A stretch of 64,000 nucleotides of DNA from Rhizobium sp. Q54 (GTDB taxonomy: Bacteria > Pseudomonadota > Alphaproteobacteria > Rickettsiales > UBA1997): positions 14,985-78,984 of the forward strand of contig CAMBXE010000001.1 of assembly GCA_945871805.1 (NCBI GenBank). The letters are read 5' to 3'. Below the pieces are notes generated by a model. The model saw only the letters and a list, made by a program, of their open reading frames with translations. It was not told where the DNA came from and ran no database searches. Shown here in pieces: positions 62,045-62,520 of this stretch (within the stretch, counting starts at the first letter, position 1; every line of letters begins with the position of its first letter). Both the position numbers and the translations under genes were made by a program.

Positions 62045-62520
62045 TTGTAAATCAGTGGAAAAGTACCCGAGCTTCTGTTGACAGGCGCCCGGGCGAGCCC
62101 CGACTATTTCATTTATGCAAAAGCAACTTTTGTCGCTGGAGCAAGTTCGAAATTGTCATTAGCAAAGTTATCGTTTGCATTTACTTTTTTTGAACGGATG
62201 TCACGAGGTTCGCACCACGCGGCCGGCAGTTTCTCAACCGGGCAAAGTTAATTCCTTTAGCGAATGTCGAAAGCTGATTCACCCCCAAATATATCGATAC
62301 TTCTCTAAGGATTTTGAGATGGATGCTAGGCAGAAATTTTTTTATGAGGTAATGTATCAGGACATACATGACCGAAGTAAAAAAATTTCTAACAACGCAG
62401 ACGCTCAAAAGCCGACGAGAAATGGTGGAGGTGCTGGGTACCGCCCCCAGGTCCATAACGTTTATTGCGAATTACATTTATCACCATAGCTCCTCAAACC
62501 TTACAGCTCAAGGGCGCGGC
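62045..62520 (-). ncRNA. ssrA: two-piece (circularly permuted) tmRNA; boundaries approximate
   Basis: Acceptor piece ends ..CTGGGGGCGGTACCCAGCACCTCCACCA at 62423. Coding piece starts GGGGGTGAATCAGCTTTCGAC at 62286. Tag ORF 62178-62113 encodes ANDNFANDNFELAPATKVAFA then a stop. Confidence 0.85.

Follow-up and report, generated by a model that had tools for sequence, protein, structure and literature searches.

A 64,000-nt stretch of DNA from an assembly labelled Rhizobium sp. Q54 (contig CAMBXE010000001.1, positions 14,985 to 78,984; hereafter the window, in whose coordinates all positions are given) carries ssrA, the gene for transfer-messenger RNA (tmRNA), on its minus strand. We conclude, at a probability of about 0.95, that the gene comes from an uncultured alphaproteobacterium of fresh water and has the circularly permuted form usual in that class, that its GGC-type T-loop is the norm for that form, and that the spacer between its two pieces is mostly a tolerated selfish repeat. 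The tmRNA is of textbook type, is readily detected by standard tools and was correctly interpreted in a first-pass annotation of the locus. Besides the assembly analysed here, the species, which is uncultured and found in fresh water, is represented by GCA_945901895.1 and several lake assemblies in ENA.

ARAGORN called a permuted tmRNA at 62022-62518 (-) with the tag ANDNFANDNFELAPATKVAFA followed by a stop. The Rfam model alpha_tmRNA (RF01849) matched with 145.5 bits (gathering score 50; E = 7.1e-40) over model positions 1-355 of 355, and tmRNA_permuted (RF04321) matched with 112.2 bits (gathering score 47), its alignment beginning at 62485. A scan with ARAGORN or a covariance model had been proposed as a check in the first-pass annotation, and both score the locus as a permuted tmRNA. 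As read from the sequence, the acceptor piece runs GGAC-CTGGG-GGCGGTA-CCCAG-CACCTCC-A-CCA to its 3' end at 62423, and its CCA lies upstream, on the same strand, of the GGGGGTG with which the coding piece opens at 62286 before continuing into AATCAGCTTTCGAC. The end of the acceptor piece, the 136-nt gap and the start of the coding piece had been placed exactly to the base. In addition, ARAGORN, Rfam and the comparative covariation described below agree on the permuted alphaproteobacterial ssrA architecture that had been proposed and on the presence of the TCGAC element in the D-loop. The parts of the gene are as follows.

62423..62485, minus strand: core of the acceptor piece, with the 5' strands of helix 2, GGAC, the T-arm, the 3' strand of the acceptor stem, the discriminator and CCA.
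62450-62434, minus strand: T-arm, with stem CTGGG (62450-62446), loop GGCGGTA (62445-62439) and stem CCCAG (62438-62434).
62433-62423, minus strand: acceptor 3' end, with CACCTCC (62433-62427), discriminator A (62426) and encoded CCA (62425-62423).
62287..62422, minus strand: spacer of 136 nt between the pieces, presumably excised, delimited by reading the sequence and by length comparison among relatives.
62062..62286, minus strand: coding piece, with the acceptor 5' strand, D-loop analogue, helix-2 3' strands, pseudoknot region, tag frame and 3' hairpin, from the Rfam alignments; its 3' end (62062) is taken from the Rfam match and is approximate.
62286-62280, minus strand: acceptor 5' strand GGGGGTG, pairing with CACCTCC.
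62279-62266, minus strand: D-loop analogue AATCAGCTTTCGAC, placed by Rfam alignment.
62113..62178, minus strand: tag reading frame called by ARAGORN, with resume codon GCA (62178-62176), 21 codons and stop TAA (62115-62113).

To compare the locus with others, relatives were gathered via the neighbouring SspB protein and not via the RNA, which leaves the sample unbiased as to RNA sequence. They are metagenome-assembled genomes (MAGs) whose submitter labels are mostly Rickettsiales or Alphaproteobacteria, some of them (Rickettsia typhi, Rhizobium sp.) evidently automatic. The window and those of the loci L007-L086 in which a tmRNA was present make up a set of 46 species-level loci. By ARAGORN and Rfam, a tmRNA lies directly upstream of sspB in the close relatives that include upstream sequence; the sole exception is L042, where the upstream sequence is complete and neither program found a tmRNA beside sspB. 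ARAGORN missed the tmRNA in ten close relatives (L007, L009, L015, L017, L022, L024, L029, L031, L033 and L043) that score 123-163 bits with Rfam alpha_tmRNA, so that ARAGORN used by itself would overlook some of the permuted tmRNAs of this clade.

The tRNA-like domain was examined in joined sequences, each made of an acceptor piece and the opening 50 nt of its coding piece, of which 39 were distinct. In this set 95.7% of cells were paired, compared with 33-52% when the partners were slid; changes on both sides were found in 16 of 27 pairs, and the observed covariation score was reached by none of 500 shuffles. The 7-bp acceptor stem GGGGGUG:CACCUCC was paired in 100% of cells, with two compensatory pairs. 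Its third pair is G3:U70 in 39/39 relatives, with A as discriminator, which bears out the alanine identity pair read between GGGGGTG and CACCTCC in the first-pass annotation. Comparative folding, suggested there for the T-arm, likewise upheld that arm: its 5-bp stem was paired in 100% of cells, with compensatory changes at 3 of the 5 pairs. Helix 2, which joins the two pieces through four segments, contributes 15 pairs that are 82-100% paired, 11 of them altered on both sides. Furthermore, a two-piece thermodynamic cofold yielded the intermolecular acceptor stem and the T-arm. The acceptor stem with G3:U70 thus forms by both covariation and cofolding, and an acceptor of the kind competent for charging with alanine can be folded. 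Taken together, these comparisons show that the two pieces can hold together via the 7-bp acceptor stem and approximately 15 bp of helix 2.

The two pieces are separated by a spacer that ranges from 8 to 189 nt among the relatives. It measures 23 nt in L007, the nearest other species, and 27 nt in L008, relative to which the spacer of the window carries approximately 113 extra nt, and most of its length is taken up by a single element.

62303..62419, minus strand: palindromic repeat of approximately 117 nt within the spacer, with ends CTCGTCGGCTTTTGAG and CTCAAAATCCTTAGAG and an internal 13-nt perfect inverted repeat.

The ends of this element have complementary cores and contain TTTTGAG and CTCAAAA, and the whole forms a single hairpin (dG -37.6 kcal/mol, z = -5.8). 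The spacers of the nearest relatives, L007 and L008, lack the element. These retain TTAGAG, which is part of the end of the element elsewhere, and may therefore be deletion remnants and not empty sites. In L009 both ends occur at 581-737, downstream of the tmRNA. A metagenome scan that required both termini matched 12 contigs: two are spacers of tmRNA genes in this species or a near one, one has a copy 4 nt past a tRNA-Gly gene (L087, 2409-2516), and five have copies with no RNA gene nearby (L088, L090, L091, L093 and L098). The others (L092, L094, L095 and L096) have the termini with an unrelated interior containing TCGTA repeats and were set aside as probably a different sequence. Among ten copies of the element the termini and apex are conserved, and the arms differ yet stay complementary, with 16 of 34 pairs compensatory. 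The 64-kb window contains one copy only, and no clear target-site duplication was visible. Between assemblies of what appears to be a single species the element differs at approximately 4% of positions. By its profile, the element is a palindromic repeat like a miniature inverted-repeat transposable element (MITE). It resembles the Rickettsia palindromic elements (RPEs) and MITE-like repeats such as Correia/NEMIS and ERIC in its length of approximately 110-120 bp, inverted termini, long stem-loop and dispersal (PMC2229807), the likeness to RPEs being drawn from architecture and context. RPEs have been reported inside the tmRNA and M1 RNA genes of Rickettsia (PMC2229807); unlike those, which lie in the mature RNA, the element in the window sits in the presumably discarded spacer.

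A second palindromic sequence (GCCTTCGC...GCGAAGGC), with the pattern GCCTTCGC(T/C)CTTGCG...AGAGCGAAGGC, was found in the spacers of L009 (233-357), L010 (2070-2245), L019, L020 (2120-2255) and L043. In L010, L019, L020 and L043 the CCA is not encoded because this palindrome abuts the discriminator A. L031 reads CCG in place of CCA. Repeats can evidently insert into the spacer without harm.

The strength of the hairpin raises the alternative that it is a processing site, for example a target of RNase III, that separates the pieces as the spacer helices of rRNA operons do. Its stability and the compensatory changes that uphold it fit such a role, as do the copies adjoining the 3' ends of stable RNAs (the tRNA-Gly gene in L087 and the tmRNA coding piece in L009) and the second palindrome that fills other spacers. 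However, the nearest relatives have spacers of 8-35 nt without such a hairpin, the five other copies noted above have no RNA gene nearby, and self-complementary arms with conserved termini are expected of selfish palindromic repeats anyway (PMC2229807). Nothing requires a processing role for the hairpin, and we consider one unlikely; a selfish repeat would be tolerated because the spacer is removed.

The T-loop had been singled out in the first-pass annotation as reading GGCGGTA instead of TTCRANY, the form found in tRNA and in Escherichia coli tmRNA. The reading itself is correct, with G in place of U, U and A at positions 54, 55 and 58; the loop is not peculiar to this locus, however. The Rfam alpha_tmRNA consensus for the T-loop is GGCgGUA, and the loop reads GGCRGNN in 46/46 species-level loci, which were parsed without any constraint on it. 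G54, G55, C56 and G58 are invariant in these loci, which include distant genomes labelled Rhodospirillaceae and Roseicyclus and other alphaproteobacteria. Moreover, a 2005 study described guanines in place of the T-loop uridines in the mitochondrial tmRNA of Reclinomonas, and in place of one of them in the tmRNA of Caulobacter (PMC1168896). By sequence comparison, the GGCGGTA loop is non-canonical with respect to tRNA yet canonical for the alpha_tmRNA family.

A lineage-specific departure that alters the folding or modification of the tmRNA, and so makes it a genuinely unusual one, is therefore refuted by the Rfam consensus, by all 46 loci retrieved via SspB and by the earlier description of guanine replacement (PMC1168896), and we regard it as very improbable. 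In its favour are the guanines at 54, 55 and 58 and a D-loop analogue that, throughout the clade, is without the second G of the usual GG. This second G normally meets C56 of the T-loop; the D-loop analogues of the clade read AGC or AGT, and the alpha_tmRNA consensus and the outgroups read AGG. Position 57 of the T-loop (62442) is polymorphic within what appears to be a single species, as comparison of the window with L004 and L005 showed (GGCGGTA and GGCAGTA).

Two open reading frames (ORFs) overlap the RNA gene.

62175..62489, plus strand: spurious ORF of 104 aa, antisense to the tmRNA, present in the window and without a family match.
62181..62456, minus strand: spurious ORF of 91 aa across the T-arm and spacer and into the 5' part of the coding piece, also present and without a family match.

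That one or both encode real small proteins overlapping the RNA gene is extremely improbable. The frames are open for 91-104 codons, and in two assemblies the 91-aa one had been called as a gene. However, neither ORF matches Pfam or NCBIfam, and the gene calls conflict among assemblies of the same species, with 91 aa on one strand and, on the opposite one, 56 or 53 aa. L007 has an SspB that is 92% identical; there the 113-nt shorter spacer and a 16-nt indel in the pseudoknot region break both ORFs into unrelated pieces, the 91-aa ORF being split into ORFs of 31 and 63 aa; in L008 neither is preserved, in a pattern that differs again from that of L007. Conservation at the locus tracks RNA helices and not codons. 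The view that both ORFs are shadows of the RNA gene, expressed in the first-pass annotation, is upheld by these findings.

No evidence that contradicts the identification of the locus as a class-typical permuted ssrA was found. Three observations leave some room for doubt. The D-loop analogue AATCAGCTTTCGAC reads AGC in the window where the family consensus has AGG. The putative promoter listed below agrees with the consensus at 8 of 12 positions, which is weak. Finally, tblastn with an approximate E. coli SmpB query gave only a chance-level match in the 64-kb window, although smpB need not be linked to ssrA. It is scarcely credible that a palindromic insertion between the two halves of the gene has disrupted it and left a decaying tmRNA pseudogene: a 117-nt repeat does sit inside the gene, and smpB was not seen with that approximate query, but the insertion falls exactly in the segment that is removed from two-piece tmRNAs, spacers of 8-189 nt are flanked in the relatives by fully conserved pieces, the helices, G3:U70, CCA, resume codon, tag frame and stop are all intact with the model matched end to end, and the functional parts are identical or nearly identical in six independent assemblies.

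The tag encoded by this ssrA gene contains the ANDN motif twice, as ANDNF-ANDNF-ELAPATKVAFA, and has a hydrophobic C-terminus rich in alanine. Two NDN motifs were found in 37 of the 46 loci, with N-D-N invariant in both copies, and a single ANDN, in tags of 10-13 residues, in the nine most distant loci. In the 33 tags of common spacing, residues 1-9 (ANDNFANDN) are invariant and residues 10-12 are variable; four lineages have both motifs at altered spacing (ANDNYNLANDNF, ANDNFAFSNDND and ANDNFAKAANDNF). Among the relatives the second motif is encoded by five synonymous codon combinations, and in the window the two copies differ in their codons (AAC GAT AAC and AAT GAC AAT). This pattern of residue and codon use is that of an old feature under selection at the level of the peptide and not of a recent duplication of DNA. 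The first GCA was taken as the resume codon because its upstream context, GUAAAU/C, matches that of the single-tag outgroups. Resumption at the second motif (GCT), which would leave the first ANDNF non-coding, was rejected; the context upstream of that codon, AACUUU, is unlike that of the outgroups. A full-text literature search for ANDNFANDN returned no paper, which is weak evidence of novelty, as databases of tmRNA tags lay outside the search.

The gene directly downstream of ssrA encodes SspB, and the features that flank the two pieces are the following.

61521..62039, minus strand: sspB, the gene for the ClpXP specificity-enhancing adaptor (Pfam PF04386), beginning 23 nt past the 3' end of the Rfam tmRNA match.
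62094-62065, minus strand: 3'-terminal hairpin of the coding piece, followed by ACTTTTCC.
62492..62513, minus strand: 5' hairpin before the core of the acceptor piece, CCTTGAGC / loop TGTAAG / GTTTGAGG.
62523..62550, minus strand: putative promoter of the ssrA precursor, with -35 TTGTTA (62550-62545), a 16-nt spacer and -10 TAGATT (62528-62523).
62556-62870: DUF167 gene (Pfam), upstream of ssrA and divergent from it.

The SspB protein (172 aa) matched PF04386 with 117 bits (E = 9.7e-34), and it aligns to the Caulobacter SspB orthologue (2QAS/2QAZ) and to the Agrobacterium protein (2NYS), with E = 2e-29 to 6e-28; it also shares the C-terminal SLDAFRK tail with 2NYS. SspB-alpha, the alphaproteobacterial SspB, is reported to be a ClpXP adaptor for tmRNA-tagged proteins (Lessner et al. 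2007, as cited in PMC3985003 and PMC8138137). Unlike SspB-alpha, the SspB of the window is paired with a tag that presents the presumed binding motif twice. The adjacency of ssrA and sspB, kept in the close relatives other than L042, was also found in several distant alphaproteobacteria and was not found in the Sphingomonadales loci of the sample. In E. coli, the N-terminal part of the tag is bound by SspB, which tethers the tag to ClpX (PMC9963277). A bivalent SspB site is plausible because it is this N-terminal, ANDN-type segment that SspB binds in E. coli and because sspB adjoins ssrA here; by this analogy, it is a reasonable hypothesis that the doubled tag is a bivalent adaptor site. That the tandem ANDNF-ANDNx is a functional innovation of the freshwater clade, giving two SspB sites per tagged protein, is a possible but doubtful extension of the same analogy.

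Upstream of the gene, CTTGTT and a T-A-x-x-x-T hexamer are kept in the promoter region of relatives, including L010 and L020, and in the Rfam alpha_tmRNA model the putative promoter falls in the 5' flank. A promoter and terminator scan found nothing relevant at ssrA, the proposed promoter being under the threshold of the scan. TTGTTA-16 nt-TAGATT is probably the ssrA promoter, weak but conserved, its conservation being the basis for this assignment. The 5' hairpin corresponds to the helix that opens the Rfam alpha_tmRNA model, and alignment with relatives revealed compensatory changes in L008 (CTTTGAGC...GTTCGAAG). At the other end of the gene, the strong hairpin at 62094-62065 is followed by ACUUUUCC, with sspB beginning 25 nt beyond, and the folding suggests that hairpin and ACUUUUCC may be the terminator of the coding piece. 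Of the pseudoknots in the coding piece, the Rfam alignment covers no more than the first hairpin of pseudoknot 1 (CGGT...GCCG). Compared with the two Rfam models, the pseudoknot-1 region has an insertion of approximately 23 nt, CCGCGTGGTGCGAACCTCGTGAC at 62195-62217 (-); this insertion differs in length and sequence among the closest relatives and is 16 nt longer in L007.

The Caulobacter crescentus ssrA of Keiler, Shapiro and Williams (2000, as cited in PMC3985003) is reportedly the prototype of two-piece tmRNAs. The locus in the window is like the alpha_tmRNA type (RF01849) in its order of acceptor piece, spacer and coding piece, its G3:U70 pair, GGC-type T-loop and TCGAC element, its ANDN-type tag read from a GCA resume codon and its reduced 3' domain. 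It is unlike that type in having a spacer that is long (136 nt) through insertion of a repeat, a tag of 21 residues in which ANDN is doubled and which ends in AFA and not in LAA or VAA, AGC for AGG in the D-loop, and the insertion of approximately 23 nt in pseudoknot 1.

The two-piece permuted architecture has been described together with its presumed processing by RNase P and tRNase Z (PMC3985003). By analogy with the family, a promoter near 62550-62523 would drive one precursor, RNase P-type cleavage 5' of G 62286 would make the 5' end of the coding piece, and 3' trimming would expose the encoded CCA at 62423. The two pieces would stay paired, and the 136-nt spacer between them, most of it the selfish palindromic repeat, would be discarded. 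Such a loss has indirect backing in the spread of spacer lengths from 8 to 189 nt and in the repeats accepted there while both pieces are conserved. As in established tmRNA biology, alanyl-tRNA synthetase (AlaRS) would then charge the tmRNA with alanine, and SmpB and EF-Tu would deliver it to stalled ribosomes. Translation would resume at GCA 62178, append ANDNFANDNFELAPATKVAFA and stop at TAA 62115-62113, and SspB encoded directly downstream would, by homology, pass the tagged proteins to ClpXP.

Biologically, the tmRNA as such brings nothing new. For annotation, the locus is a lesson in how gene callers applied to MAGs place hypothetical proteins over an unannotated essential RNA gene, and its repeat-filled spacer illustrates neatly, in nature, that the permuted gene can dispense with this segment. 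The doubled motif beside sspB offers a cheap and testable lead on the co-evolution of tag and adaptor and is the only part that warrants an experiment. If each tagged protein does present two SspB sites, they could raise avidity or the rate of capture, or the doubled motif could let SspB bind in either of two registers with respect to the ClpX signal at the C-terminus; the tag would then be a natural counterpart of the engineered variants of ssrA-tag spacing and affinity.

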